Source: Candidatus Latescibacterota bacterium (GTDB lineage: Bacteria; Latescibacterota; UBA2968). Taken from it: 64,000 bases of DNA. Within the stretch, counting starts at the first letter, position 1, and each line of letters starts with the position of its first letter. The notes beneath the pieces were generated by a model that searched no databases, was not told the origin of the DNA, and worked only from the letters and a program-made list of their open reading frames with translations. The position numbers and the translations under genes were made by a program. This document shows positions 7,886 to 60,251 of the stretch, one piece after another. The DNA is taken from positions 5,504,001-5,568,000 of the forward strand of contig OZ242320.1 in the NCBI GenBank assembly GCA_965208125.1, written 5' to 3'.

Positions 7886-7893
7886 TTAACCAC

Positions 7894-42279: not shown

Positions 42280-42785
42280 CCTTCGTCTCCACTACTTTCC
42301 AATGGCCTCCTCTGGCGGACCCGATCCGTGCAAGGACGCCCATTTGTTTCAGCTTACTGATCTGCCACTCGATTCCCCTTGCCGTAATTTCGAGTTGGTT
42401 CGTCAGTTCCGCTGTGGTGATTGAGGGGTTGGCGGCGATCAGGGCCAAAATTTTCTCCCTAGTTTTTTTGTTCTTGGGTAGTTTCTTGGGTAGTTTCTTG
42501 GGTAGTTTCTTGGGTAGTTTCTTGGGTAGTTTCTTGGGTAGTTTCTTGGGTAGTTTCTTGGGTAGTTTCTTGGGTAGTTTCTTGGGTAGTAGCGCGATTA
42601 GTTTTTAGGATAGTTTTGGGGATAGTGGCACTACCAACAGGGAAATCGGGCACTTGATACGCGGCGGAGAACGGGAACCTCAACCACAGACCGTCGCCGC
42701 CCTGAGCGTTGGCGAATCCGCAGACCCATTTCAGGTATTCGTCTCGCCCGGTCTCTTTCCATTCGATGTTCTGACTCTCGCTCAT
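42272..42785 (-). pseudogene. Internally deleted AlbA_2...wHTH gene with a TTQE repeat and a frameshift at an A7 tract
   Basis: MSESQNIEWK...GFANAQGG is fused directly to DGLWLRFPF. After the repeat, a shifted frame reads REKILALIAANPSIT...RIGSARGGHWKV and its stop overlaps the hsdR start region. Confidence 0.75.
42471..42590. repeat. Perfect 12-bp tandem repeat (TTCTTGGGTAGT)x10
   Basis: Ten contiguous identical units; encodes TTQE on the minus strand. Confidence 0.95.
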
Positions 42786-44308
42786 GCCTCTGTATCCCTT
42801 GTCTTCAGACCTGAAAGAGCAGCCCGTCCCTTGTCCGTTAGCCGATACTTCTGTAATGGGCTACTCGGTTTATCAGGGACAGTCCTTTCCAGCAACTCGT
42901 CAGCCAATAGCCGTCTAAGCTGCTGCTCGAAGCTCCTCGTTCGGGTCGAATATCCCGCGACTATCCACAACTCTCTGCTCGTTGTCGCTTCCCGAACACA
43001 CGCTTGTAGCATGGCAATATCCCTGACTGACAATTCAGCTTGCACCCCAGCTTGCACCCCAGCTTGCACCCCAGCTTGCACCCCAGCTTGGCCTGCAAGT
43101 TCTGCCCGCCAAATCTTCGTTACAAATCCCTGGGGAACAGCGAACTCCGGTTCTGGCAAACCCGCTTTCACACAGCGACGGATCATATCCAGCGTTCCGG
43201 TTCCCATTCGTTCGATATATTCCGCAAGGTACATAGATTCTGCCAGCAAAGGATTGCCGGGTACCGACGTGTGCGCGACTCGCAACTTCTCTAATGTCAA
43301 TGGCGGCGGTAGCTTGCCGGGATTCCAGACCTCCAACCGATCCGCAAAAAGCATGACCTGAACGCTACCATTGTCCGTATAGTCGCGGTGCGCCACTGCG
43401 TTGACAATAGCTTCTGTCACAACTTCTTCGGGAATTTCATAAGTACGGGGAGCGCGAGCACTCTCCGCCCGTGTGCCTATTGACCGATTGATCTTGCTCA
43501 ACACGAAGTCCACCGCCTGGTCAACCAACTCGAATACCGTGCCCTTATAGACCTGGTAGGACGGAATCGGTTTGGCTACCTCTGTCCCGTGAAAGTGGGC
43601 ACATCTGACTTCGGAAGAAATGAGATGCCGCTGAGGCGTCTTTCCGAACAACAACACCGCTGCATTCGTCAACCGCCCGTCGTTCAACAGTTTAAGATGC
43701 TCCAACAACTCCTCGGGAGATGTGTCTTCAGCCAGCGGAAACTGCCTGGCTCTGTGTGCAGTGCGAATAAATCGAATGATTCGCTCAAAATCGAGGTCTT
43801 CCAGCACCGCCTTCGCGCAAGGCGCTGCATCAAATGGCCCCCAGCGGATCAATTCTTTGACTTCCAGGTACTCTACCAATGCCGCATAAAGCCCGGTTAC
43901 CAGTTCTGCCTGGGTATTGAATCGTTTCCGAATTAGCCCTGCCTGCGCCTTACCGATCAATGCCTCCATCTTCGGATGTCGGACGTGATTCTCTGTCCCC
44001 TTCACAAAGATCAGACGATGCACACCCAGAGTGGTCGCGCGGTCAAATTCCCGTTCCGTTGGCGACAACCCTTCCGCGTCCTCTGTTCCATAGTCACTTC
44101 CAAATAACCCCACATAGAGATCGCACCGTTCCACTTCATCCAGATAGAGCGCATCGGGCCGTCGATCCGACGCCGGAACCTCCTCGAACAAGAACACCTC
44201 GAAGAACCGCCGCATCAGCGGATCTCCACGCAGATAATCGCGCAACGCCGCTCGCTCTTGTGCGAACTCTGTTTGTACGCTGCTGATGAAAATGCGAAGT
44301 GGGATCAT
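42782..44308 (-). CDS. DUF4062 + RecG-C/HATPase_c_4 + HTH protein
   Basis: RIFISSVQTEF..ER, DLYVGLFG..YG...SPTEREF; EAIVNAVAHRDY; ERMGTG; C-terminal SPLQKYRLT. Confidence 0.82.
   Translation of the reverse strand: MIPLRIFISSVQTEFAQERAALRDYLRGDPLMRRFFEVFLFEEVPASDRRPDALYLDEVERCDLYVGLFGSDYGTEDAEGLSPTEREFDRATTLGVHRLIFVKGTENHVRHPKMEALIGKAQAGLIRKRFNTQAELVTGLYAALVEYLEVKELIRWGPFDAAPCAKAVLEDLDFERIIRFIRTAHRARQFPLAEDTSPEELLEHLKLLNDGRLTNAAVLLFGKTPQRHLISSEVRCAHFHGTEVAKPIPSYQVYKGTVFELVDQAVDFVLSKINRSIGTRAESARAPRTYEIPEEVVTEAIVNAVAHRDYTDNGSVQVMLFADRLEVWNPGKLPPPLTLEKLRVAHTSVPGNPLLAESMYLAEYIERMGTGTLDMIRRCVKAGLPEPEFAVPQGFVTKIWRAELAGQAGVQAGVQAGVQAGVQAELSVRDIAMLQACVREATTSRELWIVAGYSTRTRSFEQQLRRLLADELLERTVPDKPSSPLQKYRLTDKGRAALSGLKTRDTEA
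43037..43090. repeat. 12-bp tandem repeat (AGCTTGCACCCC)x4.5
   Basis: Encodes the GVQA linker in the DUF4062 protein. Confidence 0.9.
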
Positions 44309-44463
44309 GTTAAAAACCTGTTCGCTAACGAGATCGGGTAGAATCATTGCAGACAACTCAACCGAATTGGGGTACATCGCGCATCGGCTCGCACGGCGGT
44401 ATGTTCAGTTCCACACCACCCAGAGGTGTATATCGATGCATATATAGCGCGTACGAGATAGGC

Positions 44464-45235: not shown

Positions 45236-45904
45236 TCACGCTACCGTGAATGCCAAGAATGTGTGATACAATTTTATCGGTGAAGCCCCATCACGCGGAT
45301 GACAGCTTGTCCAAACCCACGACTCAGCAACGAGACCCGATGGTTTCAAGTTCTCTTTGGAGCGTGATGTGCGGTTCAGATTGTTGTTAATACCAGTGAC
45401 AGCAGCTTTCGCGTCGCCACTGATCAGATATCCGATCATGAATCCGGTAGAGTGATTCCCCGAGTACTTACCCTTTCGGAAGCGATCAATACCTTCCACA
45501 ACGTACTCGCGGCATAGATAAGTATTGTTACCGTCGATACGCTTGCATTCAATGATCGCGTGAGGATCATGCTCACCAAAACGGTCGAATATCTCAATCG
45601 AAAAAATCGGGATATCGGGCCGGCCATCAGGCACCAGTACATCGGGATGAGAACGAGATTCGGTTCCGGGAAGCACTACCATTTTTTTGTCCCTCAGAGG
45701 ACTTCCAGGTTTCAGTGCTCGACGCATACCATCGCGCAGTCGTTCTGTGAGTTCTACTTCGCCGGTGTCCGTATTGACATCCAGTGACCGCAACGCAAGC
45801 CCCCAGCCATCCTCAATCGTTTGTAGGATCGTCGTGGCAATATCACGCTCAAGATCAATGAACTGGCGACCGCTGGTAGCCGAATCGTCAAGGGGCAACT
45901 TCAT
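45236..45904 (-). CDS. Putative PD-(D/E)xK nuclease
   Basis: GRPDI...IIECKRI; ATGA overlap with the upstream methyltransferase. Confidence 0.6.
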   Translation of the reverse strand: MKLPLDDSATSGRQFIDLERDIATTILQTIEDGWGLALRSLDVNTDTGEVELTERLRDGMRRALKPGSPLRDKKMVVLPGTESRSHPDVLVPDGRPDIPIFSIEIFDRFGEHDPHAIIECKRIDGNNTYLCREYVVEGIDRFRKGKYSGNHSTGFMIGYLISGDAKAAVTGINNNLNRTSRSKENLKPSGLVAESWVWTSCHPRDGASPIKLYHTFLAFTVA

Positions 45905-48828
45905 ACAGCGGTTCCCGAGAAGCTTTCAACAATGACCGAGTCTGCGTCTTCCAGTGCCGACACGCCCATCCAATGTCGATGGGCGGCAGGTTTAATGATC
46001 ACGACCTCGTTGCGACCATGTACCCGAAGTTCGCGCTGACCAATTATTGAGTTTGAAAGTGGAACGGCCAGGCGCTCACCGATCCGGTTAAGAACATCTC
46101 TCAGGTCTCCTTCTGATTCTATAACCTCCAACTCAGAAGGTTTCAAAAGTTTAGAGCGATCTTCGAGAACGAATCGCACAACCCGGAGTGGCGCTTGCTC
46201 CGGAAGATCAAAGACTTCAGCACGCATATAGCGTTGATTCGCCGCGGAGAGCCAGACACCTACTGCCGACTGGAATGTGCGTGCATAGTTCGAGACCTGT
46301 TTAATAGTGGCGGCTTCTACAGAAGCATCCCTGCCCGCCTTCCATTGCCAACTGGCACGCACCAGACCATCGCGTGCGACGATGCGGTCAGCCTCGTCCA
46401 TGTCATACAGGTCGAAAACAGCCTCGTCAAGTGCTTGCCAGTTGGAAGCGGATAGAGAACTTTTTTGCATATCCCGAGCAAGCTGCGTTAGGTGTGCGCC
46501 AGAATCGGAACCCAGGGCCGTTGCGAGATCGGGAACCGGCAGGCGTTCGATGTCCCCGAGCTTGATCCACCGCATCCACAGCCTAAAATTGGAGGCGGAC
46601 ATCAGGAAGAACCAGTATGCGAGCGAAGAACTCAGAATGGCGGCGAGCAAGTGAGCGGCATTGTGCCACGCGGCTGGAAATGTCGCACCGAAAAAGGCGT
46701 TCGTGAAGACGGTATCTTGATCAGCAACGGCAACGACAAGGCGAGAGTCGCGGTTCAGGAATTTCTTGACGAGCAGCAGTGGTGCGCGGTAGATGTCATG
46801 CTTGCGCGGCCCTTTGGCCTTTGATTTGTCAAAAAAAGCCAAGTTATCCGGTACGTTAAATGGTTGAAGGTCTCGCGCGTTGAGGAGCGGAAGTCCGCGC
46901 AAAAAACTCGAATCGCCGCTCCGATCACTGAATGTCAACCCGGTACGAAGTGTCGCATCAAGTTCCCCAAGTTGGTCACCCAGCGTTGGATGGCTCGATG
47001 TCAGCCTGTCCAGCAACGAAAGATCGCGACGTGACCCGAAAAACGCAGCTTTCAGAAACTCCGGTTTTCGGTACCAGTCAGCCAACGGCAACGTGATAAT
47101 ATCGCTGGGCAGTATCTCAAAAGAATGGCTTTTTGCTCCAACCGGAGACCAAGGAACCTTCACAGTGGTAATCGCGTCGCGTCGCAATTTCCGATGCCTC
47201 CCAAATAGGACAAACGCGAGCGTTTCGTTTTTTTGAAATAGCCAATCGGAATGGTTTGACAGATTGACCAACGTCACCGGAGACAGTTTCTTGATGAGCT
47301 GCTGCAAAGCGGTCACCCCGGTTTTGTCCAGACTGAAGAATTGGGCAGTGTTCAGAATCAAGCCGAATCGAGTCTTAGCGGTCGCAAGGCGCATAGCCTG
47401 AGAAACGAAGTCCAGACTTTCACCACGAGGTGGAAACGCACCTTTCGGACCGCCTCGGATGTGGCGTGCAGTGGTGGTCGCTCTGCCTCGATAGCCCCAT
47501 GGCGGATTACCGATAATGATGTCGAATTTCCTCGCCCGCCCCTGTCCAGCAGCCAGACTCCCGGCATCCCACGCGTCACCGACGATGAGAGTTTTGCCAA
47601 TCAGCGACTCGAACTTCAGCGTCTGAGACAAATGCGGGTCTGGATCAAGTTCTAGGGCCGCCAGATAAAGACTGAATGCGGCGACGCGCACCGCAGCTTC
47701 ACTGATATCTACACCGTAAATTTGTTGGTGCAGCGTGGAATGGATCAATTCGCGACTCGGCTTGCCTCCGTTAGATTGGAGATTGACCAACCTGCGCAAA
47801 GCTTCGACCAAGAAGACGCCGGATCCACAGGTCAAATCGAGTACGGTTTCCTCTCCAGTGAGTCCTTCCATGGTCTCATCCAGAACCAGAGAAACGAGCG
47901 AAAGTGGGGTGTAGAAAACGCCCGTTTGGGAACGGGTATTAGGATCCGATGGATCCGCGTGAGCAAACTGCTCATAGATTGCGCTTATCAGTTCCACCGG
48001 TATTACGTCGAACTGATAAGGAAAGAGCGTTGTTTGTCTCGACTCGGGATCTACGGCTTCAAGGAAGTCCGCGACTCTGCGGAGGTGTTTGGCCTGCGGC
48101 GCAAATAAGCTTTCTGAAGGAAACATGTCGCCATTGAAGATATCTCGAAGCCAACTGAACAACCGCTTCGTGGCAAGAGGGACACGCAGTATGGAGGCAA
48201 GGGTATGATGGTCGTAATTGCGCTTAAGGAATTGCTCTGTAACAATTTCTCGATCTATCAGGTACTGGGTGAATATCGATCTACAGATCAGCCCTTGAGC
48301 GCCGGAACGGTCCATTCCCAACTCTATGAGGTCACGCTCAAGTACGAAAAGATCGGACAGAAGTTGTCGGCCCACACTGGTCCTGCGATTAACAGCACTT
48401 GTTTGTTGCCAGAACCGTCCCGTTTCCATGGCGAGCCGACCTGCGAACGCATCGAGGTTATTCAACTCATTCTCAATCTTTTGGAATGTCTTCAACCTGT
48501 GCTTGGTCGCATCTCCGGTTTCTCGAGGTCGGCCAAAACCGTTGTAGAGATCAATCCTCTCGGGTGAAATTATCCACAACAGAGGGGCGAAACCCTGGTT
48601 CCAGATTTCTCGGCGCCACCGGGCGACCTGCTCGGCAGATGGAACTTCCGATTCGAACTTAAAATAGACAGTAAGTGCCGAGTCACCGCGCCACAAGGCA
48701 TCAGGGGAAAACTCCCGGGCCTGGCACTTCATACGAGCATCTTGGTCCAGATATACGCCATGCGCTGGCTCGCCATTCTCCAGATAGCCGGTGGCTTCAA
48801 GTACTTCGTGTAGGGATTGGGCGATCAT
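45901..48828 (-). CDS. Eco57I/type IIG-like N6-adenine DNA methyltransferase with a TRD region
   Basis: ISAIYEQF, GVFYTP, LDLTCGSGVFL, IYGVDIS, IIGNPPW; TaqI_C-like AILSSSL. Confidence 0.88.
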   Translation of the reverse strand: MIAQSLHEVLEATGYLENGEPAHGVYLDQDARMKCQAREFSPDALWRGDSALTVYFKFESEVPSAEQVARWRREIWNQGFAPLLWIISPERIDLYNGFGRPRETGDATKHRLKTFQKIENELNNLDAFAGRLAMETGRFWQQTSAVNRRTSVGRQLLSDLFVLERDLIELGMDRSGAQGLICRSIFTQYLIDREIVTEQFLKRNYDHHTLASILRVPLATKRLFSWLRDIFNGDMFPSESLFAPQAKHLRRVADFLEAVDPESRQTTLFPYQFDVIPVELISAIYEQFAHADPSDPNTRSQTGVFYTPLSLVSLVLDETMEGLTGEETVLDLTCGSGVFLVEALRRLVNLQSNGGKPSRELIHSTLHQQIYGVDISEAAVRVAAFSLYLAALELDPDPHLSQTLKFESLIGKTLIVGDAWDAGSLAAGQGRARKFDIIIGNPPWGYRGRATTTARHIRGGPKGAFPPRGESLDFVSQAMRLATAKTRFGLILNTAQFFSLDKTGVTALQQLIKKLSPVTLVNLSNHSDWLFQKNETLAFVLFGRHRKLRRDAITTVKVPWSPVGAKSHSFEILPSDIITLPLADWYRKPEFLKAAFFGSRRDLSLLDRLTSSHPTLGDQLGELDATLRTGLTFSDRSGDSSFLRGLPLLNARDLQPFNVPDNLAFFDKSKAKGPRKHDIYRAPLLLVKKFLNRDSRLVVAVADQDTVFTNAFFGATFPAAWHNAAHLLAAILSSSLAYWFFLMSASNFRLWMRWIKLGDIERLPVPDLATALGSDSGAHLTQLARDMQKSSLSASNWQALDEAVFDLYDMDEADRIVARDGLVRASWQWKAGRDASVEAATIKQVSNYARTFQSAVGVWLSAANQRYMRAEVFDLPEQAPLRVVRFVLEDRSKLLKPSELEVIESEGDLRDVLNRIGERLAVPLSNSIIGQRELRVHGRNEVVIIKPAAHRHWMGVSALEDADSVIVESFSGTAV

Positions 48829-49010: not shown

Positions 49011-49892
49011 TTAATCAGTCAAGGTGTCCTTCTCCATACGTTCGATAAATTGGTTTAAACGCCCCGGTACTCCCCAAGCGTCACTTATCTGTGGATTTGA
49101 CTTCAATGCAGAACGTGCGTAAGAAGAAAGGGATGAATCCCAATAATTAAGGTTCTCAAGAAGATTCATGTTCTTCTTTGCACCTGTGTAGTTATAGGAT
49201 TGCTTAAAGCATTCTACGACTGACTCGGAGATGCGCTTACGAGTTTGCCGATGTTGACAAAGTATGTCAAACAATTCCACTGCTAAAGCCGCAGCAGTCT
49301 TACCATTTCCCTCTATGGCTTGAAAACGTCCGATAAAGCCGTGCGGATCAGCCCCAAGGCGAGCGGCTACAATGAGTAATTGACGCCCCATCGCGTAACC
49401 GATCTCCTGATCTGTCCATTCGCTTTGACGAAACTTTGGATGAAGCAATACGAGCATGCCGTCACACGTCGCCAGTGCAACTTCAATCTCGTCTTGCCAC
49501 TCTCGAGTCGGCTCGATATCGTTGTGTGCCACAAACGACGACACTCCAAATCCAATCAACTCGTTTTGAATTTCGTCAGCGAACTTGCGGTGTTCGGCCA
49601 GATGCGACACGAAAAGACGAAAATATCCCTTAATCCAGAAACTTGGTTCTATTTGCGGGTGCGCTATCCCAAATTCGTAACCCAGATGCCGACCCAAAGC
49701 CAGTAACACATCATCGTCTCCTGTCTCAACCATCTTCATAATGTAGGCCGATCGATTGTTTCCACCCCAAGTGTCGTCCCAAGGAAGATCAAACTGACGA
49801 AGGGTTAGATCAATTAGTGCCCATTCGGCAGTACCGAGACGATGACCAATTTCCTTGATTAGGCGAATGCGATCTGATGGTGTCAATATCAT
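49011..49892 (-). CDS. TIR-domain protein with helical N- and C-terminal extensions
   Basis: LFVSH...FVAHNDI...WQDEI...SEWTDQEIG (catalytic Glu position). Confidence 0.85.
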   Translation of the reverse strand: MILTPSDRIRLIKEIGHRLGTAEWALIDLTLRQFDLPWDDTWGGNNRSAYIMKMVETGDDDVLLALGRHLGYEFGIAHPQIEPSFWIKGYFRLFVSHLAEHRKFADEIQNELIGFGVSSFVAHNDIEPTREWQDEIEVALATCDGMLVLLHPKFRQSEWTDQEIGYAMGRQLLIVAARLGADPHGFIGRFQAIEGNGKTAAALAVELFDILCQHRQTRKRISESVVECFKQSYNYTGAKKNMNLLENLNYWDSSLSSYARSALKSNPQISDAWGVPGRLNQFIERMEKDTLTD

Positions 49893-50128: not shown

Positions 50129-50632
50129 TTATCGATTTTTCGACTCCCTTTCAATGACCCTTGCCAATTGTTTTTGATTCCACGGTACAACCGAAATCTT
50201 GTTGTCGGTTATAGCTTTTGGAAGCCGTGATGGTGGAGTGTTGCCTTTGTGCATGGCGACGACACCTTTCCCCATGGCAAGGCTCTCTCGTATTTCCCAA
50301 TCCACCCATTTGCTACTGGCGGTGTTGTCCGACACATAAACGACGGTGACAGAGGATTGACGAATACGATCCCGAATGCCCCGCTTGATGTAATCAGCTT
50401 TCTTGCTATCAAAAGGTTCTCGCAGTGACCAGTCATTGAACTCAATGTTGCTGTTTTCGTTTTTAGCCTGACCACGTAGCAAATTGACTTCATCAAGGTC
50501 ATCCGAAGAGAAGCTAATAAAGACATTGCGTTTTTTGCCTCCGTCACGTTCCCTGAGAGATTTTTTAGCACGTTCTTCGAGCGTTCTGAGTTCATTTGGG
50601 GCTAAACCCCGGCCACTGCCACTGCCACCCAT
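50129..50632 (-). CDS. ThsB-like TIR protein (DUF1863/MTH538-type) with an N-terminal MGGSGSG extension
   Basis: NVFISF, FNDWS, IRQSSVTVV...T..SKWVDWEI. Confidence 0.88.
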   Translation of the reverse strand: MGGSGSGRGLAPNELRTLEERAKKSLRERDGGKKRNVFISFSSDDLDEVNLLRGQAKNENSNIEFNDWSLREPFDSKKADYIKRGIRDRIRQSSVTVVYVSDNTASSKWVDWEIRESLAMGKGVVAMHKGNTPPSRLPKAITDNKISVVPWNQKQLARVIERESKNR

Positions 50633-50634
50633 GG

Positions 50635-51231
50635 TTATCTCCTTTCCTTTGCATTGTTAATCTCAACGCATGCTATACACACGCCACAAGGTTCTTCACC
50701 ACCGGCATGACATGAATAGGCTTGTTTGATTCCCCGGTCATTCGCAATTACCAAAACGTCTCGCTTCGAAAACTCAATTAACGGTGTGAGAACAAAAATT
50801 CGCCTGCCCATTGCGATTTCAATCATTCTTTCACATTCTTCCACGAAGCCTTTAGTCTGGTCTGGAAAAAGATGGTCGGCAGGATTGAGTAGGCCAAGCG
50901 CGATGCTATCAGCCTGAACCTTGAAGGCATGGGCTGCTCCTGCCAAGACAAAAAGGAGATTGCGACCTGGCAAGAAGGCATCTTCGTTGATGCGCAAATT
51001 GCTGTCTGTAAGTCCACTCGGGATTGTCTTTCCAAAACCAGACAAATCCATGTAGGTCACTGGCGGTAGGCCGAATTGTTCGTGAAGTCGCTGACAAGCT
51101 ACCCATTCCTTATGTACTCCAAGTTGCCCGTAATCGATAAAGAGGGGAAACAATGTGGCTCCCTCTTCATGGGCCAGAAGACTCATGAGAGTTGAATCAA
51201 ATCCACCAGATACAAGAGTCACAATACCCAT
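50635..51231 (-). CDS. QueC-like PP-loop protein (Cap9-like)
   Basis: LVSGGFDS, DYGQ, FLPGRN, FPD, SC...PCGVCIAC Zn site. Confidence 0.92.
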   Translation of the reverse strand: MGIVTLVSGGFDSTLMSLLAHEEGATLFPLFIDYGQLGVHKEWVACQRLHEQFGLPPVTYMDLSGFGKTIPSGLTDSNLRINEDAFLPGRNLLFVLAGAAHAFKVQADSIALGLLNPADHLFPDQTKGFVEECERMIEIAMGRRIFVLTPLIEFSKRDVLVIANDRGIKQAYSCHAGGEEPCGVCIACVEINNAKERR

Positions 51232-51911
51232 GCCTTAGATTCCTCCTTTGCCACTTTCATTACAATCCAAACTGCAAGGTCGAATTGATCAGGCGAGTAT
51301 CCGAACACCTGGGCGTGTTCAATAAAAGAATCTTCCAGTACTTCGTACTTGCTTAACGTCGAAACTGATTTGAGTGGGGTGTCTGTGAGACCAACCCAAT
51401 TCAAATACGCCAAAACATGTACATCCAGAATCGCAATGTGCTTTGCGTAACCGATGTTGCGGAGAAACAGACTCGCCTGCTTAGGACCCAAACCCGCTAC
51501 CTCAGCGACCAGAACGCGCCGTGCGCTACGAACATCACTGGCACTGTTGAGTAATTTTAGAATTGATCCTCTTGAAGTGTATAGACGTTCTGCTGACCGA
51601 CGAATCTGATTGGCCCGAATACGATAGAATGGATAGCCCCCAGAAAGTGCTGTCACCGTATCCTCTTCATATTGTTCAAAGCATGTGTTTCGTAGTGGTT
51701 GTGATAGCAAACACATACCGTCCATGCGTTCAACAGCCGCGTGAACAGCTTCGAATTTTACCCGGCTACCTAAGATACAGGATACAAGTTCTCGCCATAA
51801 ATCATCTTCGCTGTACTTCTTCCACGAGACTGAGGTACACTCGTCAAGTGTGCTACACACGTCCCGGATCGCTTGTTCAATCGTTGGAAGCGAAAAACTA
51901 ATAATCGCCAT
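51219..51911 (-). CDS. 8-oxoguanine DNA glycosylase/N-glycosylase-like HhH protein (Cap11-like)
   Basis: ELVSCILGS, VAGLGPKQASLFLRNIG, AILDVHV. Confidence 0.88.
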   Translation of the reverse strand: MAIISFSLPTIEQAIRDVCSTLDECTSVSWKKYSEDDLWRELVSCILGSRVKFEAVHAAVERMDGMCLLSQPLRNTCFEQYEEDTVTALSGGYPFYRIRANQIRRSAERLYTSRGSILKLLNSASDVRSARRVLVAEVAGLGPKQASLFLRNIGYAKHIAILDVHVLAYLNWVGLTDTPLKSVSTLSKYEVLEDSFIEHAQVFGYSPDQFDLAVWIVMKVAKEESKAWVL

Positions 51912-51912
51912 G

Positions 51913-52947
51913 CTATTCGTCTCCTTTGCTGGCCTGGATTAGAAAATCGGCTTGTTCGTTAGTTGCGTACTTTTGAATGAACGATTCTACATCTCCAAAA
52001 TGTAGTGCTTCGTATAAGCTTGCCATAAATTTGTGATAGAAACTCAAATTGTGCATCAAGACCGTTTGGATGTACGGTAGTCCAGAGCATTGCCCCCATT
52101 CTGTCTGATGGCGGATCAAGTCCCATTGCTGGAAATGTAAAAGCCTACCTGTTTCATGATCAACAACGGTTTGACACCATTCTAAACCATCGAAACTATC
52201 GGCTCCAGCGAGCGAGTAAGCAATAATCGAAAGGGGATTTCCAGTGCCGAGTAGATGAATCGGACAATATACACCCAGCGCATTGAGGGCCTCTCGGATT
52301 TTCCTTACCGTTCGGGTTCGCTCGATAATACCTTCTCCAAGCTCACGTTCTGGGACAGCCAAAAGTAGGGGGTAAAGCTGCTCTGCCGTTCTGCGGGCCG
52401 CATCCGGTAGCAATGTCGTGTCTCCATGGATTATCGGAGTCACTGTTCTGAAGGCATGTTTCTGATCTCGAATAACACCGGCCACTACATCTTTGGCAAT
52501 TGACTCTGAGGTATTGGGTGGCTGCTGGTTATCATAGCAGAAGCAGAGATGGTGATGGTCAGAACCAGCGATCTCCTGGAACCTCTCCGGATGCCAGTCT
52601 TTATCGTCTTTCCAAAAGCTTTCGTAATTCCCGCTGTCCATGAGGATCACGGCACCGCGTTCCTTGCCTTGCGTCAGCGCGGTATCTATGCGCAAGCGCT
52701 GATCTTCGGTACAATGAGCGATATCATAGGCAGATACCAAAAATAGCGGATAATGGGCTCCGACAAGAAGTTCTACATAATCAACAGGTGAAAGGTTTGT
52801 CTTAACACTCGAAACCGATGGAAAAAAACAGGGCAGTCGAAGGGGTGTCTGTGAGATATATAGCTCCGTGCTTCGATCTATTACCATAGTAATTTCCTTG
52901 GTCGAGTGCACAATTTCATAGCCATTAATAGGCGTTTTCAATGGCAT
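51913..52947 (-). CDS. tRNA-guanine transglycosylase (TGT)-like protein (Cap10-like)
   Basis: P.FFPSVSS, LMDSGNY, IHLLGTG, GADSFDG, HNL. Confidence 0.85.
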   Translation of the reverse strand: MPLKTPINGYEIVHSTKEITMVIDRSTELYISQTPLRLPCFFPSVSSVKTNLSPVDYVELLVGAHYPLFLVSAYDIAHCTEDQRLRIDTALTQGKERGAVILMDSGNYESFWKDDKDWHPERFQEIAGSDHHHLCFCYDNQQPPNTSESIAKDVVAGVIRDQKHAFRTVTPIIHGDTTLLPDAARRTAEQLYPLLLAVPERELGEGIIERTRTVRKIREALNALGVYCPIHLLGTGNPLSIIAYSLAGADSFDGLEWCQTVVDHETGRLLHFQQWDLIRHQTEWGQCSGLPYIQTVLMHNLSFYHKFMASLYEALHFGDVESFIQKYATNEQADFLIQASKGDE

Positions 52948-53017
52948 CCTTGAGGGCGTTTAAGATGAACGAGAGGGGCCACGATGTCCTGGCATCCAAG
53001 AGTCTTTTGGGGTTACA

Positions 53018-53962
53018 TTACTTTGGATTAATTACCACATCTCGGCGTGCGCACCACATAGTGTGTTCACGAGAAATGGTCTCCTCAACCTGCTCTATAA
53101 GTGCGAGAAAATCATCCTCTTTCGTTATATTCGAAGCTACCGTTTCCTGCTCCCCCAGTTCTTGGGCGGCGAGGGAATAAGACTGAGTCAACTCACTGTA
53201 GCGCTTCATCTGACTCCAAGCGATAGCAGAAGCAGCACCGGTCATCAGCAATGGGACCACGTTTACCGGCAAGCTACTTGAAGCAGCCCAAATAATTGCG
53301 AGAACAATGGCAAGAACCTGTAGTACCACAACTGTCCAGAACCAACAATTTTCCTTCCTTGAATTGAACGTGGCTTTATTTGAATACCATATTTTTTGAT
53401 CGCGAAGCCTCGATTCAAGATACATATCCCGCCGTTCATCCACGGATTTCCGGCGCATATCACTCATAAATTGACTAAGGGCCTGAACATCTGGGTCTAA
53501 GCTATGCGCCAAATCTTTTGGGCTAGAAGGTCTCGCCTTTCTTATTTCTTTCAGTCTCTCGATAAATGATTGCTCAGCGGTGCTGTCTTCCTTGAACGGT
53601 GCTGCCTTCATCATGAATCGCCATGTAGCGGTTTTTGTGGACTCAGCAATGGCGCGGCAATCAAACCACACCTTATCGTCCCGACGTACATGGGATACCA
53701 AAGTGAGAATGACTCCAATTACCAGAATGATCGCCAAAACAATACAAGCCCATTTGACGGCTGCGACCGGAACTATCGTCGTAAGGGCAGCACCAACACT
53801 CCCCAAAAGAAGACAACCAATATGGCACTTCTGCAAACAAAGATAACGCCATTGTGCTGAAAGTGAAGCCTGGTCGGCACTCTGGTATAGAGCCGGGAAG
53901 TGCTGGTCCCCAATACTGGAAGATACTGGCTCTTGATGTTTCTTCAGCACATTGGACATCAA
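53018..53962 (-). CDS. SLATT/DUF4231 four-TM protein (CBASS 4TM-type effector)
   Basis: ADQASLSAQ, WFDCRAIAESTKT..WRFMM, Y...RLRDQ..WY, EETISREHTMW; two TM hairpins. Confidence 0.85.
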   Translation of the reverse strand: MMSNVLKKHQEPVSSSIGDQHFPALYQSADQASLSAQWRYLCLQKCHIGCLLLGSVGAALTTIVPVAAVKWACIVLAIILVIGVILTLVSHVRRDDKVWFDCRAIAESTKTATWRFMMKAAPFKEDSTAEQSFIERLKEIRKARPSSPKDLAHSLDPDVQALSQFMSDMRRKSVDERRDMYLESRLRDQKIWYSNKATFNSRKENCWFWTVVVLQVLAIVLAIIWAASSSLPVNVVPLLMTGAASAIAWSQMKRYSELTQSYSLAAQELGEQETVASNITKEDDFLALIEQVEETISREHTMWCARRDVVINPK

Positions 53963-54014: not shown

Positions 54015-55286
54015 TTAAACTTCCGTGCGATCTAAGTCCGGCTTGATCAGCCTCACCTGGCCTGTGAGAAGTTGCTGCATCATACCTTGCTTGATAGCGC
54101 GGGCCTTGTCCCTGCGTCGCTCCAACGCGGCGGTCTCGGCGTCTATATCGGAGAGAACGGCAGCAATGGCGCGTTGTTCGTTAAGCTGAGGCAACACAAC
54201 GTTGTAGGAGCTTCGAATAACGCTTGGATGAGCTTTCAGGGTATAATCGAAGACCTTACGTGAATGCTCATTCTGCAGGTGATATGCAAGATAGCGATAG
54301 TCAATGGATGATGTCCTGATACGCATATAACCACAGACATTGGTAACTGAGAATCGGTGTTTGGGTCGATAAAAAAAATGTCCGCCGCCATCAACAGACC
54401 ATGTAATCAGTTCCTCATCGAACATGTAATCGCCATACGAACCAAATAGGCCGTTAAGATGGACAGACGACGAGTAAATTGGGTAATCTCCAGGCTGTCG
54501 ATCAATGTCCTTCTGTGAAATCACCTTACCTCTAAAGAGTTCGATGTCACCTCGTTGTTCTAGTTCCCCGAGACGCTTAGTTTCCCACTTCTCACTGAAA
54601 CCCGGCAGGCGAGTCTTGTCAGTGAGAAGTTGCTGCATAGCGGCCTGCTTGACGGCTCGCTTTTTGGAGATTAGTTCCTCCAACGCGTCAAGCAATCCAT
54701 CCATATCCGACAACACCTCGGCGATGGCGCGTTGTTCGGTAGGAGGTGGAAGAGGAATGTTCAGATAACGGAGTGTTCCCAATGCTATAAACTTCTGAAT
54801 TCCACCGTCTAAGCTGTCTTTCAAATAGGTCTGGAATGACGGTGACGCCATTAAATGGATCAAGAATGTTGGTAGTACTTTTTGCGGCTTTATAAGTGCA
54901 ACATTTTTGATACAGAAATCTGGTTCAAAATCGATTAACACAGTACTCCCAATCGTCCCTATCATGGACATCAGAATGTCATTAAGATCTACCTTTGATC
55001 GCTTGTTGATTCTATCGGCATCTTGCTCCGAAATACATGAAATATTTTCAAGATCAAGGCTACCGTTTACTATATTTTTGGAAGTTATAAGGGGGACACC
55101 TGTACTATAGAATCGGGGGGAATCGTGTGTACCATCTCTAACATCGCAAATTGTCTCGAGTTTTTGAATTGACCATTCTTCCGGAATCATCCCCACCTCT
55201 GTACGCTTGTAACCCACTGGTACCTCTTCCGATAGGGTGTATTCAGCTTCAAGGGCCTTGCCCATTGTCTTTTGTACCTTACTCAC
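54015..55286 (-). CDS. hsdS: Type I RM specificity subunit
   Basis: GYKRTEVGMIPEEW; two TRDs each followed by EQRAIA..LSD.D...MQQLLT. Confidence 0.95.
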   Translation of the reverse strand: MSKVQKTMGKALEAEYTLSEEVPVGYKRTEVGMIPEEWSIQKLETICDVRDGTHDSPRFYSTGVPLITSKNIVNGSLDLENISCISEQDADRINKRSKVDLNDILMSMIGTIGSTVLIDFEPDFCIKNVALIKPQKVLPTFLIHLMASPSFQTYLKDSLDGGIQKFIALGTLRYLNIPLPPPTEQRAIAEVLSDMDGLLDALEELISKKRAVKQAAMQQLLTDKTRLPGFSEKWETKRLGELEQRGDIELFRGKVISQKDIDRQPGDYPIYSSSVHLNGLFGSYGDYMFDEELITWSVDGGGHFFYRPKHRFSVTNVCGYMRIRTSSIDYRYLAYHLQNEHSRKVFDYTLKAHPSVIRSSYNVVLPQLNEQRAIAAVLSDIDAETAALERRRDKARAIKQGMMQQLLTGQVRLIKPDLDRTEV

Positions 55287-55392: not shown

Positions 55393-56347
55393 TCAAGTAG
55401 GAGAAACTCCTATCTGCTGAATAAATTCACTCCACAGACGCTTAGCGGCGTTCTCTGGAGTGATCTGCCCCTGGTCATTTCTAAAGCCTATAGTTAGTAT
55501 TGACGAGATACTGCTTGTAACCGTCCGATTCTATGTAGAAGATGCCATTTGCTATATTGGAGTCAGCGTTTTCCGAGAACGAGTAGGATATATCACCCAA
55601 CCCCATACGGCCGTTCCCGCAATGTATAGTGATGTGCGCTGTACTCTGGTTCCGCAGGCGTGCCCTATTGACGATTGTGCATCCGAACGAACTCGGTCCG
55701 TGAGATACAAAACGCCCGCGCAAATCGTCAATCGTATTGATCAGGTCAATCTGCTGCTGAAAGTAGTCCCGGATGGTCGCAAATGCGGTCTCGCGGAACT
55801 CACTGCGGTCTATTTCGTCGAAATCTTTCTGTATCCGATAAGAAGGAGCCGCTGGCTGTGTGTCCATAGTCCCTCCAGAGAAAGGAGTGTGTTCTGTACC
55901 AGACACAGTATCCCTACGAGTTTCAATAATACGCCGAAGTTCCTGGACGACATCAAGATAGGCACTGTTCTGGTTCATCCACTCGCTGATGGGTTTGCCA
56001 TCGCGTGGCAGCACTTTAAGCTCATGTATCGGTAAAGAAAACCAATCGCAAGGCTCGATAATAATCGCTACAACATGTACTGCACCATCCCTATGGCGCT
56101 CAAGTGCCCGCTTCATTTCACGATTGACGCAATAGTCGGATGCCAGGAAATCCGGACTAACCAGCATCAAGAAGAGATCACAGGACTCAAGCTCCTTGGT
56201 AATCTCGGCATCAATGTTTCCACCCGCGAGAATTTCACGATCAAACCATGCATCAATAAGCCCCTCAAAACGAAGGGGTGCCAAATGGGTGTGTAGTCGA
56301 TTCAGAGCTTCATCATCTCTGTGTGAATATGAAATGAATACCTTCAT
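55393..56347 (-). CDS. TIR-domain protein with a probable frameshift near its 3' end
   Basis: MKVFISYSHRD...LLVSPDFLASDYC-like segment (LMLVSPDFLASDYCVNREM). The frame stops at 55481, but a shifted frame continues ITPENAAKRLWSEFIQQIGVS* to 55393. Confidence 0.8.
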
Positions 56348-56740
56348 TGCATTAATCCTCACTTTAGTATAGAGCTTCTTGCCACGTGGCGTGGCTGACA
56401 TCCTTTCACAGTGATAGACGCATATTTACAGACCGTTTTAATACGCACGAAAAAGGCCATGTAATTTTTTTATCAAGCTATTGAATATACCGAATCTTTA
56501 CGTTTCTGGCAAAGCTGAAACCATAACGGAAGAGCCTCTTATATCCTAAAAAATCATGCTCTTTGAAGTTGTTGATGATCAGGAGGCTAAAACAGTGGGA
56601 TTAACCAGGGGAATATGGGGGAGAAGTCCAGTGACTTGTGAAGTGGAAGGTAGTCCTGTCTCTGGGACGGAGAATATCTGAAGCGCTATCTCGGAAATCT
56701 CAGAGTGACAGGGATCTGACTTGATATGTTGCTGGTTAGA

Positions 56741-57586
56741 CTATGTCTGACACAACTCAGCTATCATCGCCGCATTTTCGCCGAGTTGATCGTTGAATTT
56801 TTGATACATCCCCACCAGAAGAACATCATTGGATTTGATATTTTTAAGCGTAAAGGCAAATTCCTCGCGAATCTGATTTTTGGAGTTAATAGCGCGCCCA
56901 GCAGCGAGAACTTTGAAAGCAATACAAGGCTTATCAGTGCTGCGAATAATGCCACACATGCGGTCACGGTGTTCGCGGAGATAGATTTCACTCAGGGGTT
57001 GATGACCAAATTTTTGTTCAAATTCTTCGCGTGCGCCCTGCAAATAATACAGCGCGGTCATGTAATAGTCGATATCCCAATCCTCTTCCTCAGCAATCTC
57101 AATAATGCGGGGATTGTGTACCGACAACCCGACCATAACACCCGTGTTGCGAATACGCTTGAGAATATCTCGAAGATAATCCAAGCGATTTTCTTGAAAG
57201 CATCGCCCAGCAACACCGCTTCCGTGGGGTGCCATGCCAATGGGATTGTGTTTGGCGGCTTCATCGATCAGTGAGGGATCGTCATACCAGTGTCCCCCTC
57301 TGCTGAGACAAAAGTAATGAATCGTACCTCCCTCATCGCGGTATCGCTGAAGATCGGCTGCCGAACGTTCGGTAAGCGTATTTTGCCAGGCGTTAACACC
57401 CACCTCTTCTGCACGTCGCAAAGTCGCTATAACCTGATCGGATGTATTGGCTTCTTGCTGGTGTTGTGAGAGCAACTGATTGAAATGTGCATACCCGTAG
57501 ATCGGATTATCGCCCATGATGAGACGACTGATCTGATATTGTCCGAATTGAACAGTTGGGAGATTTATCGTGTTTGAGACTGACAT
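56741..57586 (-). CDS. Aldo/keto-reductase-like TIM-barrel hypothetical protein
   Basis: ISRLIMGDNP, GLSVH, AFKVLAAGR, VGMY. Confidence 0.6.
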   Translation of the reverse strand: MSVSNTINLPTVQFGQYQISRLIMGDNPIYGYAHFNQLLSQHQQEANTSDQVIATLRRAEEVGVNAWQNTLTERSAADLQRYRDEGGTIHYFCLSRGGHWYDDPSLIDEAAKHNPIGMAPHGSGVAGRCFQENRLDYLRDILKRIRNTGVMVGLSVHNPRIIEIAEEEDWDIDYYMTALYYLQGAREEFEQKFGHQPLSEIYLREHRDRMCGIIRSTDKPCIAFKVLAAGRAINSKNQIREEFAFTLKNIKSNDVLLVGMYQKFNDQLGENAAMIAELCQT

Positions 57587-57815: not shown

Positions 57816-60251
57816 TCATAGCACAATCCCCATCTTCTTCAAATGTCCCTCAACCTTCGCGCTGAAATCATCCACCTCTCGCTCCAACTCCGGAAGCGGA
57901 CGGGCATAGCGCTCTTCCAGTTCTTTTATTCGTCCTGTGAGGTGCTGTGTAAGTCGCTGCACCTCTTCCTGAATATCGGCTTGAATACTTGCGAACCACT
58001 TGTCCTCAACCACCAGTGTCTTGATCTCAGCCTCGGTAAGCATTGCGTATCGAGCCAGCACCTTTTGATCCAGCGCGGATTGGCTATCCCTAACAGCCTT
58101 ACTCGCCCTGGACTCAACGCCAATCAACTCCAAGCAGCACGAGAGAGCATCCCGTTCTTCGTCACTATCCGGTTCGTCCCGGATGATCTTAAGCCGCGTC
58201 GTCACCCCGGTTTTGGTAACCTTGCCTTTGTCATTGGTGGCGTCTTGCAACAAACCGTCCTCGCCCGTGTGTTCTTCGACAAATTCCTCCAACTCGCGAG
58301 CAGCAGTCTCTTGATCGGCTTGTAGCACCTCAATCGCAGCCTGATCTATAGCGAAGTAGCGCGCGACAATCAATCCCGGAGGAATCAGATCCATTTTATA
58401 CTTATTCTGCTTAATAGTCAAATCCGGCGTCTCTTTAATCTTCCTTTCCTTGTCCTCAATGATCCCACGCGGTTTGGCAGCCTCAGCCCAACCGTCGTCG
58501 GCAATGAGATACACATCGTCCTGCACAATCTCGTTCCAATAGTCCATCAGCCGCTGGTAAATATCGTAAGTGTCGAGCAACGGCAAATCGGCAAAACGCG
58601 CGAGCAGGTCTTCCGACAGGATGTGGATGATTTCTCTGGGATTAACACCTGTATCAAGCTCCTTGAGGAGCGGATCGTGAGTCTCCCGCCAACCATCCAG
58701 CACAGCCGAGACTTGCGTCATATAGCACTTAAACTCGTCGTGGTCGAGAATCGCATCCTTCACCGTCTCAACCCGAGGCTCGCTATAGCCCGCGCGACCA
58801 TTGCCGATGAATAATGCCTGACGTAGCGAAGGAAAGACCTCCCAATAATCACCCAGCGAGTCCAGATCTCGGTCTGGAATGCCACCATGCAAATGTGCAT
58901 CAAGATCGTGCAAATCTTCCGGCTCGCTGGAGTCAATATAACGCGGAATATTGAGGTTGTAGTCGTTAGCAGGACTGGCAATCTCGGCCATCGGTACCAT
59001 GCGAGAATAGCGCGGCAATTCGGTCTGCTTATTGAACACATCAACAATCCGGTGTATATCCTGCGCGCGCAAGCGGTTCTTATTGCCATCCTTGAGGAAC
59101 CCTTTACTCGCGTCAATCATAAAGAGGCCAGTACGGGCATGGGCATTCTCCTTATCAATAACCAGAATACACGCGGGAATACCAGTGCCGTAGAACAAAT
59201 TGGCAGGCAGGCCGATAATGCCCTTAATGAGACCGCGCTGGATGAGGTTCTTGCGGATATCCGCCTCCTTATTGCCGCGGAACAATACGCCATGCGGCAG
59301 AATGATCGCGCCCTTTCCCCTACTCTTGAGCGACGTAATGAGGTGCAGGAGAAAGGCATAGTCGCCATTCTTTGCCGGAGGGATACCGTATTCAAAGCGC
59401 CCGTACTCATCGTGCTCTGGATTGAGACCACTGGACCACGCCTTGGCGGAAAAAGGCGGATTGGCAACGGCAAAGTCGAAGGTTCTGAGATTATCATAAG
59501 GATTTTTGAAGTACGGAGCAGCCAGCGTGTTGCCATTATATAACTCGGCAGTTGGGTGACCGTGCAGGATCATATTCATCCGCGCGAGCGACCATGTGGC
59601 ATTGTCCATCTCCTGTCCGTATATCGTAATCCCATTCGGGGCCTCATCCGCGGCCTTGAGCAGCAGCGACCCAGAGCCGCAGGTCGGATCGTAAATCGTC
59701 TCGTCCTGACGGGTGTGCGGGCCAATACCCACCACCTTCGCCATAATCCGCGACACCTCAGCCGGTGTGTAAAACTGTCCCTTGCTCTTACCGGACTCGG
59801 TGGCGAAGTGCATCATCAAATACTCGTATGCATCGCCCAACAGATCATCGCCCTCAGCCCTATTACCGCGAAGGTCGAGACCCTCGAAAATGGCGACCAA
59901 CTTCGACAACCGGTCTTGCATCTCCTTACCCGCACCCAGCTTGCTCCCGTCGTTAAAGTCAGCCTGATCAATGACGCCCTGGAGATCATTGGCCTCGGCG
60001 AGTTTACCGATGATTTTGTTAATTTTATCGCCGATCTCCTTGTCGCCCTTCAACTTCACCATATCGGCGAAACTACCCCCATCGGGCACTTCAATGAGCG
60101 CGTCTGGATCGCCTGCGTACCTGTCCGAGATGTATTTCATAAACAGCAGTGTCAGGACGTAATCCTTGTACTGCGAGGCATCCATACCACCGCGCAATTC
60201 ATCGCAACTTTGCCAGAGTGATGAATAGAGTTGGGATTTTTTAACAGCCAT
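57816..60251 (-). CDS. hsdM: Type I RM methyltransferase subunit (long form)
   Basis: GQFYTP, YDPTCGSGSLL, ANPPF, PHGVLFRG, NLNIPRYI. Confidence 0.97.
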   Translation of the reverse strand: MAVKKSQLYSSLWQSCDELRGGMDASQYKDYVLTLLFMKYISDRYAGDPDALIEVPDGGSFADMVKLKGDKEIGDKINKIIGKLAEANDLQGVIDQADFNDGSKLGAGKEMQDRLSKLVAIFEGLDLRGNRAEGDDLLGDAYEYLMMHFATESGKSKGQFYTPAEVSRIMAKVVGIGPHTRQDETIYDPTCGSGSLLLKAADEAPNGITIYGQEMDNATWSLARMNMILHGHPTAELYNGNTLAAPYFKNPYDNLRTFDFAVANPPFSAKAWSSGLNPEHDEYGRFEYGIPPAKNGDYAFLLHLITSLKSRGKGAIILPHGVLFRGNKEADIRKNLIQRGLIKGIIGLPANLFYGTGIPACILVIDKENAHARTGLFMIDASKGFLKDGNKNRLRAQDIHRIVDVFNKQTELPRYSRMVPMAEIASPANDYNLNIPRYIDSSEPEDLHDLDAHLHGGIPDRDLDSLGDYWEVFPSLRQALFIGNGRAGYSEPRVETVKDAILDHDEFKCYMTQVSAVLDGWRETHDPLLKELDTGVNPREIIHILSEDLLARFADLPLLDTYDIYQRLMDYWNEIVQDDVYLIADDGWAEAAKPRGIIEDKERKIKETPDLTIKQNKYKMDLIPPGLIVARYFAIDQAAIEVLQADQETAARELEEFVEEHTGEDGLLQDATNDKGKVTKTGVTTRLKIIRDEPDSDEERDALSCCLELIGVESRASKAVRDSQSALDQKVLARYAMLTEAEIKTLVVEDKWFASIQADIQEEVQRLTQHLTGRIKELEERYARPLPELEREVDDFSAKVEGHLKKMGIVL

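Follow-up and report, generated by a model that had tools for sequence, protein, structure and literature searches.

We analysed a 64,000-nucleotide (nt) window from the genome of a Candidatus Latescibacterota bacterium (assembly GCA_965208125.1, contig OZ242320.1, positions 5,504,001 to 5,568,000 of the forward strand), in which an operon of five co-oriented open reading frames (ORFs) occupies positions 50129-53962 of the minus strand. All coordinates refer to this window, the whole stretch of DNA analysed. The operon encodes, in order, a SLATT-domain membrane protein, a TGT-like protein, an OGG-like protein, a QueC-like protein, and a TIR protein of the ThsB type (Table 1). The TIR protein starts with a glycine tail resembling that on the cyclases of type IV cyclic-oligonucleotide-based antiphage signalling systems (CBASS), while the QueC-, TGT-, and OGG-like proteins are counterparts of the CBASS ancillary proteins Cap9, Cap10, and Cap11. 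The locus is probably a Thoeris-type abortive-infection system, in which a TIR protein signals to a SLATT effector under deazaguanylation control of the type IV CBASS kind.

The last four genes are tightly packed. A single nucleotide separates the TGT-like stop (51913) from the OGG-like start (51911), the OGG-like and QueC-like genes overlap by 13 nt (51219-51231), and 2 nt lie between the QueC-like stop (50635) and the TIR start (50632); an earlier note on this stretch had given these spacings, and the common orientation, exactly. The TGT-like protein likely begins at the ATG at 52887, giving 324 amino acids (aa), because its homologues are mostly of that length (324 aa in most among the matches listed), AAGGAA lies 6 nt upstream, and residues 1-20 of the listed ORF have a predicted local distance difference test (pLDDT) value of 34. 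Its residues are numbered here by the 344-aa ORF. The SLATT protein likely starts at the ATG at 53959, a codon preceded by GGGGGA. Pfam assigns all five products to families and PADLOC models for TGT, QueC, and ThsB match the respective proteins, in line with the identities given in the earlier note.

Table 1. Features of the operon (first six rows) and of the surrounding island.
Feature	Position	Strand	Length (aa)	Description
SLATT protein	53018-53962	-	314 as listed	four-transmembrane double SLATT (SLATT_3 + SLATT_1/DUF4231); candidate effector
TGT-like / Cap10-like protein	51913-52947	-	344 as listed	
OGG-like protein	51219-51911	-	230	Ogg2-type HhH-GPD glycosylase; Cap11-like
QueC-like / Cap9-like protein	50635-51231	-	198	candidate ATP-dependent ligase
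ThsB-type TIR protein	50129-50632	-	167	presumed signal synthase and presumed deazaguanylation substrate
TIR N-terminal tag	50531-50632	-	residues 1-34	MGGSGSG tail, helix 12-28, linker
hsdM	57816-60251			
281-aa ORF	56741-57586	-	281	next to second ThsB gene
Second ThsB-type TIR protein	55481-56401	-	306	PADLOC PDLC00420 1e-59; between hsdM and hsdS
hsdS	54015-55286			directly upstream of SLATT gene
Third TIR protein	49011-49892	-	293	TIR_2 8.9e-14; untagged; 236 nt downstream of tagged TIR
Type IIG restriction-methylase	45901-48828	-	975	
222-aa ORF	pair with IIG gene spans 45236-48828	-	222	no family; overlaps IIG gene by 4 nt
DUF4062 + HATPase_c_4 + Fic-like_C protein	42782-44377	-	531	
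hsdR	39163-42279			
YgjP-like gene	38439-39161			next after hsdR

The tagged TIR protein and its partner enzymes

The TIR protein matches the Pfam family ThsB_TIR (3.7e-25) and several PADLOC ThsB models (best 2.1e-16). The top matches in a fold search with its AlphaFold 2 (AF2) model are the B. cereus TIR 8fz9 (4.2e-09) and EcThsB (8wcf). W109, W112, and E113 (codon 50294-50296), the last a catalytic-type Glu, are invariant in 49 aligned homologues. With WVDWE present around E113, and SGGFDS at residues 8-13 of the QueC-like protein, the earlier impression of intact catalytic-looking motifs was borne out. In the AF2 model (mean pLDDT 80.4) the TIR fold begins at residue 35; the protein starts MGGSGSG and then enters a helix, residues 1-11 being without secondary structure (3-9 with pLDDT below 50) and residues 12-28 helical.

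This start recalls the substrate of protein deazaguanylation. According to the accessible text of Wassarman et al. (10.1101/2025.04.06.647259), the type IV CBASS cyclase loses Met1 and bears 7-amido-7-deazaguanine on Gly2, the adduct being installed by the QueC-like Cap9, while the base pocket of the TGT-like Cap10 binds the modified tail. The same text describes an N-terminal extension M(G/S)G(G/S)GG in all type IV CBASS cyclases, reports that deletion of the motif or a G2D substitution abolishes defence, and places OGG in about one third of the operons. For comparison we used three type IV CBASS plasmid loci from Bacillus sp., B. mycoides, and Pseudanabaena (H14, H15, and H17 of four distant plasmid matches from a tblastn search; H16 was left out), whose genes run QueC, TGT-like, cyclase and whose cyclases have MGGSGG and then a helix-like stretch at the N-terminus. 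The MGGSGSG of the TIR protein matches the cyclase motif and appears to be the same handle, and by analogy its Gly2 is presumed to be the site of the 7-amido-7-deazaguanine adduct. When frames of at least 80 aa were scanned for GG[GS][GS][GS] directly after their first start codon, the TIR gene proved to be the sole ORF of the genome with such a tag; five other matches to the pattern sit 101-531 codons inside longer frames.

The presumed tagging enzyme, the QueC-like protein, matches Pfam QueC (1.6e-32) and, over nearly its full length, the PADLOC QueC model PDLC00911 (2.4e-25), yet scores 107.1 bits against a cut-off of 150.3 for the NCBIfam QueC model. Its matches in the PDB include QueC 3bl5 (3.3e-12) and Cap9 9nto_B (1.8e-10). 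It retains the SGGFDS motif (SGGxDS in the family), PGRN, and a Cys cluster at the C-terminus. Trees were built by quick searches from 37 of the 75 related cassette loci described below, the window, the three CBASS loci, and five to six housekeeping genes. In the QueC tree all TIR-linked proteins group together as a clade (support 97), with the three CBASS Cap9 proteins as sister group and the housekeeping QueC set apart (support 87).

The TGT-like protein is more divergent from its canonical relatives. The PADLOC TGT model PDLC00913 matches nearly its full length (8e-26), while Pfam TGT recognizes only a C-terminal piece of 37 residues (4e-08) and the NCBIfam model tgt_general gives 22.5 bits against a cut-off of 47.6. 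Among PDB sequences, Cap10 (9ntn_A, 5.9e-07) is the only match at E≤0.01, and a profile of 19 TGT-like homologues reaches Cap10 at 1.1e-09, as opposed to 1.2e-03 for the best canonical TGT. The fold search agrees: the top matches of the model are the Cap10 chains 9ntn_B and 9ntn_A (3.8e-13, TMq 0.64), followed by tRNA-guanine transglycosylases at about 1e-10. The catalytic pair of Cap10, H226 and D248, aligns with H231 and D253, which are invariant in the family. In the pocket, D104-S105-G106 and D139 are present at 95% or more in 76 TIR-linked sequences and in all three CBASS Cap10 proteins, and D104, S105, and D139 are probably equivalent to D73, S74, and D122 of Cap10. The TGT tree splits off the housekeeping enzymes with support 100. 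Over the sequence, fold, and tree comparisons together, the operon copies side with Cap9 and Cap10 and not with housekeeping enzymes, as the earlier note had anticipated.

The OGG-like protein matches Pfam Ogg-HhH (1.6e-26) and scores 97.4 bits against the NCBIfam N-glycosylase/DNA lyase cut-off of 183. The PDB entry 3n0u (4.7e-12) aligns across its GxGxK...ILD stretch, and Lys144 and Asp163 of the helix-hairpin-helix (HhH) motif, which we take from Ogg2 enzymes to be the catalytic pair, are present. The SLATT protein has two domains by Pfam (SLATT_3 7.2e-34, SLATT_1 9.3e-32, DUF4231 1.6e-12) and NCBIfam (SLATT_3 1.1e-40, SLATT_1 5.2e-32), and residues 46-94 and 204-239 are long hydrophobic segments that fit four membrane spans. 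It is the likely effector of the operon.

The genome, a single contig of 5.75 Mb estimated at 96% completeness, yields no SMODS (PF18144) match at E≤0.01; two authentic cyclases of type IV CBASS score 43.6 and 42.7 bits with this model. The earlier remark that the island holds no CD-NTase-like ORF, CD-NTases being the cyclases of CBASS, thus extends to the whole genome at this threshold. Housekeeping genes for QueC (262 bits), PTPS/QueD, and TGT (546 bits) lie far from the island. Judged by their sequences, the QueC-, TGT-, and OGG-like proteins of the operon are extra, divergent paralogues and not housekeeping enzymes, since they fall below the NCBIfam cut-offs and separate housekeeping copies exist elsewhere; unlike enzymes of queuosine synthesis, the QueC- and TGT-like proteins are neither sole copies nor joined with the housekeeping enzymes in the trees. 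The housekeeping set also means that the host could plausibly supply the deazaguanine precursor.

Conservation of the cassette and its relation to known systems

Homologues of the TGT-like protein are numerous, with 1,820 clusters at E≤0.001 in a large protein collection. A scan of one genome per species returned 134 relatives, and all locus counts given here concern the best 80 of these 134. A TGT-like gene, a QueC-like gene, and a strong TIR match occur in that order in 75 of the 80 loci, which is more than chance would produce. Within these 75 cassettes, distributed over 18 named phyla, an OGG-like gene is present in 71. A phmmer search with the three CBASS cyclases matched none of the 80 loci. 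The combination of QueC, TGT, OGG, and TIR without a CD-NTase, to which the earlier note had drawn attention, is thus a recurrent one, and the possibility it raised that homologous operons always include a CD-NTase, simply lost here, did not hold. In a further scan of 401 genomes of the Rhizobium order (PADLOC TGT, E≤1e-10) there were four matches, all at the score level of TIR-linked proteins, and no CBASS locus was seen among them.

The five exceptions are mostly incomplete. Three (L015, L030, and L055) end at a contig edge and one (L026) has a broken TGT-like gene. The fifth, L029, has behind an intact QueC-like gene a 111-aa ORF (8741-9076) with an MGGSGG tag and a helix, which contains no TIR domain and is followed by high-GC host-like sequence; this is either a truncated cassette or one with a different tagged partner.

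These counts bear on whether the operon is a decayed type IV CBASS, non-functional since losing its cyclase, with an unrelated TIR gene in the vacated place. The genome does lack a cyclase, and the island, richer in AT than its flanks, is crowded with further defence genes. However, all five ORFs are undisrupted and retain their motifs, the tagged-TIR cassette recurs in 75 of 80 loci of which none has a cyclase match, and the gene order is unlike that of the three CBASS loci. Since the cyclase-free arrangement is conserved, loss of a cyclase from a CBASS does not explain it, and we hold decay to be hardly credible. A functional, cyclase-free Thoeris-type system remains the reading we prefer.

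The tag is as constant as the cassette. TIR proteins in the 75 loci start with MGG in 70 cases, with GG after a GTG codon in three, and with MAG and MGN in one each, and in all 75 the tag begins roughly 32-41 residues ahead of the first TIR strand. In 24 of 74 loci we counted another TIR ORF, this one without a tag, no more than 6 kb from the tagged one; the figure is an undercount which misses the TIR_2-TGT fusion of L075. A second TIR being absent from most cassettes, the tagged protein is normally the only candidate synthase; in a large proteobacterial group it is the only TIR of the cassette, which argues that it is the signal synthase and not a mere regulator.

Variants on the TIR complement were also observed. 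Between its SLATT and TGT-like genes, L001 has a small untagged ThsB_TIR gene (Pfam; 6631-7032, 133 aa), and ORFs like it occur in L003, L006, L008, L013, and L016, these loci being some members of the clade closest to the window. In the window no such gene is present at this place. L075 (Rhizobium mayense) encodes a 467-aa protein with TIR_2 fused to the TGT-like N-terminus (Pfam; 6590-7993) as well as a separate tagged TIR downstream. On plasmids of Rhizobium, Agrobacterium, and Neorhizobium (H1-H13), the TGT-like match coincides in 12 of 13 cases with a gene whose annotation is that of a TIR-domain protein, which points to the same fusion, and L072 and L076-L080 have long open frames at the corresponding place that hint at it there too.

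A SLATT match accompanies 63 of the 75 cassettes, usually directly upstream and co-oriented. In 27 of the 63 the match is strong (E<1e-20), like that of the double-domain protein of the window, while two weaker upstream ORFs of about 165 aa, when scanned, proved to be single DUF4231/SLATT_1 proteins. The frequency of this linkage matters for a reading in which the tagged TIR protein is itself the killer, an NADase which depletes NAD+ once the deazaguanylation module releases or activates it, the SLATT protein being separate or auxiliary. NAD+ depletion is a known mode of action of bacterial TIR domains, the protein is small with its catalytic Glu intact, and no SLATT match was obtained in 12 of the 75 cassettes by single-query phmmer. 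Set against this are the 63 linked loci with their usual upstream, co-oriented SLATT gene, the ThsB signal synthases that are the nearest folds of the TIR protein, and the signalling of TIR and SLATT pairs through cyclic ADP-ribose (cADPR) in type VII Thoeris, as given in the accessible text of a preprint (10.64898/2025.12.03.692087). We consider a killing NADase unlikely, and a TIR protein which signals to a SLATT effector the better account.

That preprint, of December 2025, is also the closest precedent for the operon as a whole. Its text describes some Thoeris operons (Fig. 6G, S10B) as carrying cap9, cap10, and cap11, a genomic observation presented without experiments, and proposes for the TIR protein the same treatment that the CD-NTase receives in type IV CBASS. 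For one example, AlphaFold 3 predictions pair TIR with Cap10 (interface predicted TM-score, ipTM, 0.79) and with Cap9 (0.62), as the cyclase does. The same text presents type VII Thoeris, consisting of ThsB and the SLATT effector ThsH, as experimentally validated, with canonical cADPR made on infection. The window's operon shares with these cap9/cap10/cap11 operons a TIR with its catalytic Glu, an effector candidate, and QueC-, TGT-, and OGG-like genes in one co-oriented string. Lacking a cyclase, it does not belong to type IV CBASS; it is a member of this kind of Thoeris. Since the architecture is thus already in print, the system is not undescribed, a possibility which the earlier note had left open. 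In its accessible text, the preprint does not mention an N-terminal glycine tag, names a C-terminal tail for the Cap2/3 type only, and is silent on how many of these operons there are, how their genes are ordered, and what type of effector they have. Relative to that text the new elements are the glycine tag of the TIR protein, the size of the family and its spread, a constant gene order unlike that of the three CBASS loci, an OGG-like gene in nearly every cassette, the active-site changes particular to the clade that are discussed below, and the frequent nesting in type I restriction-modification (R-M) loci, though the supplementary tables may overlap with these. By titles and abstracts, no other primary papers on TIR-linked cap9/cap10 were found in the literature collection searched; searches for literature joining SLATT with QueC, or SMODS, SLATT, TGT, and OGG, gave chance word matches only, and the accessible text of a QueC-family survey makes no mention of TIR.

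Likenesses to other systems are partial. With type IV CBASS the operon shares QueC- and TGT-like enzymes, an OGG-like protein (optional in CBASS), and a glycine tail and helix on the synthase. It differs in that the tagged enzyme is a TIR protein, with no CD-NTase, in its gene order (TGT-OGG-QueC-TIR, as opposed to QueC-TGT-cyclase in the three loci), and in the frequency of OGG (71 of 75, against the one third or so cited for CBASS). Type VII Thoeris, as its preprint describes it, likewise combines a TIR of the ThsB type with a membrane protein that has a SLATT domain, a likeness at the level of domain description; in the window three ancillary genes stand between effector and TIR, and the TIR is tagged at its N-terminus. 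Type II CBASS and Thoeris with Cap2/Cap3 are, in the texts available, comparable in that operon-encoded enzymes prime the synthase by covalent modification of a terminal tail. The chemistry is unrelated, with E1/E2-like enzymes acting there at a C-terminal Gly and QueC/TGT-like ones at an N-terminal Gly here, and no Cap2 or Cap3 genes are among the Pfam matches of the operon and island. In QatABCD, the QueC-like QatC modifies the N-terminal Gly of QatB (accessible text of PMC13082051), the same QueC-family logic in phage defence. A Pfam scan found none of its QatA ATPase, QatB, or QatD TatD-nuclease genes here, and the QueC-like protein keeps a canonical core like that of Cap9, unlike the remodelled QatC site described in that text.

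The surrounding island

The operon lies within an AT-richer island (guanine-plus-cytosine content 0.44-0.49, as opposed to 0.52-0.58 in the flanks), in which a type I R-M system is split over some 21 kb (38439-60251) with defence genes nested between its subunits. The earlier note had placed the operon between hsdS and hsdR. The hsdS gene is indeed directly upstream, but the large downstream gene at 45901-48828 is a type IIG enzyme and not hsdR. Between the operon and hsdR stand the gene of the third TIR protein, the IIG enzyme, and two more ORFs. Of the 75 related loci, 30 have a gene of a type I R-M system no more than 7 kb from the cassette.

No known Thoeris effector was found beside the second ThsB-type TIR gene (55481-56401). 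The neighbouring 281-aa ORF has no Pfam, PADLOC, or NCBIfam family, its likeness in the Atlas being to aldo/keto-reductase-like hypothetical proteins, and we make no claim that it is an effector. Homologues of both genes are found near the cassette in L001, L009, and L014. The third TIR protein (49011-49892) was the best match of no ORF in the 80 related loci, which were searched with eight query proteins.

This R-M setting suggests another reading, in which the QueC-, TGT-, and OGG-like proteins form a module for deazaguanine modification or repair of nucleic acid, Dpd-like or an adjunct to R-M, that merely sits beside an independent TIR/SLATT Thoeris pair. The operon's position inside a split type I locus and near a type IIG enzyme, the R-M genes close to 30 of the 75 cassettes, and the retention of the transglycosylase-type Asp/His pair and the HhH Lys/Asp pair in the TGT- and OGG-like proteins all suit such a module. 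Several observations count against it. Firstly, the order TGT-OGG-QueC-TIR is fixed across 18 phyla, with overlapping or 1-2-nt junctions in the window. Secondly, the glycine tag, a known Cap9 substrate, is carried by the TIR protein and by it alone. Thirdly, the nearest structure to the TGT-like protein is Cap10, and not a tRNA or DNA transglycosylase. PADLOC matched only PDLC00913 for the TGT-like and only PDLC00911 for the QueC-like protein, which we take to be CBASS ancillary models in a collection that presumably also includes Dpd models. Finally, Dpd systems combine a TGT-like DpdA with a ParB-like DpdB, DpdC, and helicase or nuclease genes, and no such partners, ParB-like DpdB and helicases included, were found among the ORFs of the island. 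A nucleic-acid module is, in our estimation, quite improbable, and deazaguanylation control of the TIR protein itself is the reading we carry forward.

Proposed mechanism and significance

We give a probability of about 0.75 to the operon being a Thoeris-type abortive-infection TIR/SLATT system under deazaguanylation control like that of type IV CBASS. Given the tag and the biochemistry of Cap9, Met1 of the TIR protein would be lost and the QueC-like protein would use ATP and host 7-carboxy-7-deazaguanine to place 7-amido-7-deazaguanine on the alpha-amine of Gly2. The modified tail would then occupy the base pocket of the TGT-like protein, which may hold or prime the TIR protein, or may pass the tail on in a base-exchange-type reaction through Asp253 and His231. 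The OGG-like glycosylase might reverse or limit the step performed by the TGT-like protein, a role which is itself only proposed in CBASS, where deleting Cap11 raised toxicity. For both of these proteins, the suggested handling of the adduct follows type IV CBASS biochemistry. Upon infection, Glu113 of the TIR protein would convert nicotinamide adenine dinucleotide (NAD+) into a signal of the cyclic-ADP-ribose type, perhaps canonical cADPR, and the signal would drive assembly of the four-transmembrane SLATT protein, a breach of the membrane, and cell death before phage release; these later steps are modelled on type VII Thoeris.

The broad proposal of the earlier note, an antiphage signalling system with a TIR generator, deazaguanine-based control, and a SLATT pore, has gained support in every testable part, through the gene content, the tag on the TIR protein, the relationship of the enzymes to Cap9 and Cap10, and conservation. 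Its narrower suggestion that a cyclase was replaced by a TIR fared less evenly. There is no cyclase and the TIR protein bears a tag of the cyclase type, but a history of replacement does not follow, as the gene order differs and the two QueC sister groups are separate.

Several observations weigh against the proposed system or qualify its likeness to CBASS. To begin with, the adduct, the signal molecule, the activation of the SLATT protein, and protection against phages are all steps that we infer by analogy. The SLATT protein had no PADLOC match and no PDB sequence match, and 12 cassettes lack a SLATT match, some having other neighbours, such as TPR-S/MAP3K_TRAF_bd or Fic proteins. The promoter scan of the operon found 11 sites, with 14.0 in shuffled sequence, and the terminator scan nine, with 7.5; neither rose above shuffled expectation, and we therefore claim no transcription unit.

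The enzymes also depart from their CBASS counterparts. At residues 121-125 or thereabouts, the QueC-like protein reads LFPDQ where housekeeping enzymes have GYPDC and CBASS proteins YxD(C/S). In the TGT-like protein, H174 is invariant throughout the TIR-linked family at a position to which K154 of Cap10, the Lys that reads the base, appears to align. Because of these two differences from Cap9 and Cap10, the chemistry or the adduct, or the handling of the adduct, may differ from that in CBASS. The relationship is in any case a distant one. In tblastn, the TGT-like protein shares 26.9-40.3% identity with the four distant plasmid matches, over 20-74% of the query, and in both trees the branches between the TIR-linked enzymes and CBASS Cap9 or Cap10 are long. 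The TGT tree even places the three Cap10 proteins of CBASS within the TIR-linked set, beside the TIR-fused clade, on a branch of length 5.57. We distrust this placement, considering the long branch, the quick search, and the extra N-terminal domain of these three sequences, and the TGT tree consequently does not settle how the TIR-linked and CBASS proteins are related.

A prediction of the complex between the TGT-like protein (residues 21-344) and the TIR protein likewise carries limited weight. It scored 0.58, where the best of three controls scored 0.00, with at least 76% contact agreement between runs and a partner pLDDT of at least 76. Of 80 solved complexes, 58 attained the mark it passed, as did two of 110 mismatched pairs, though just seven of the 80 solved complexes passed at scores of 0.60 or less, the range in which both passing mismatches fell, and this calibration applies only roughly here as our own alignments served as input. 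Part of the 0.58 may, moreover, be memory, because a like complex, Cap10-CdnD, has already been solved. The prediction hints weakly at binding.

A bolder view concerns the relationship with CBASS. Instead of being a side-branch of type IV CBASS, the TIR-linked TGT-OGG-QueC cassette may be where protein deazaguanylation chiefly belongs, with a cycle of attachment, transfer, and removal acting as the infection switch. The TGT-like protein would then base-exchange the tagged TIR protein onto a nucleic acid or some other target, from which the OGG-like protein would remove it. This view draws on numbers, with at least 75 species-level genomes in 18 phyla compared to the 49 type IV CBASS operons cited in the text available, and the cycle would fit the cassette's own gene order, the OGG-like gene in 71 of 75 cassettes, and its own signatures, LFPDQ and the His in place of the Cap10 Lys. 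We regard it as doubtful, if possible. If true, such a cycle would reveal the target of deazaguanylation.

The more conservative reading, of a TIR/SLATT system under deazaguanylation control, also has wider significance. Protein deazaguanylation was discovered only in 2025, and the downstream target of the Cap10-bound synthase and the role of Cap11 are still sought. The operon family offers a second, independent setting of the same tag, on a TIR protein instead of a cyclase. Comparing the two settings could separate traits of the tagging machinery from those of the synthase, the more so as OGG is nearly constant and the effector simple here. Tools that require a CD-NTase would presumably miss such loci or call them incomplete CBASS. 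While no longer surprising to specialists, the system is a good experimental entry point into the function of deazaguanylation, and it suggests that the glycine tail and helix may be a portable handle which puts unrelated signal synthases under the same control.

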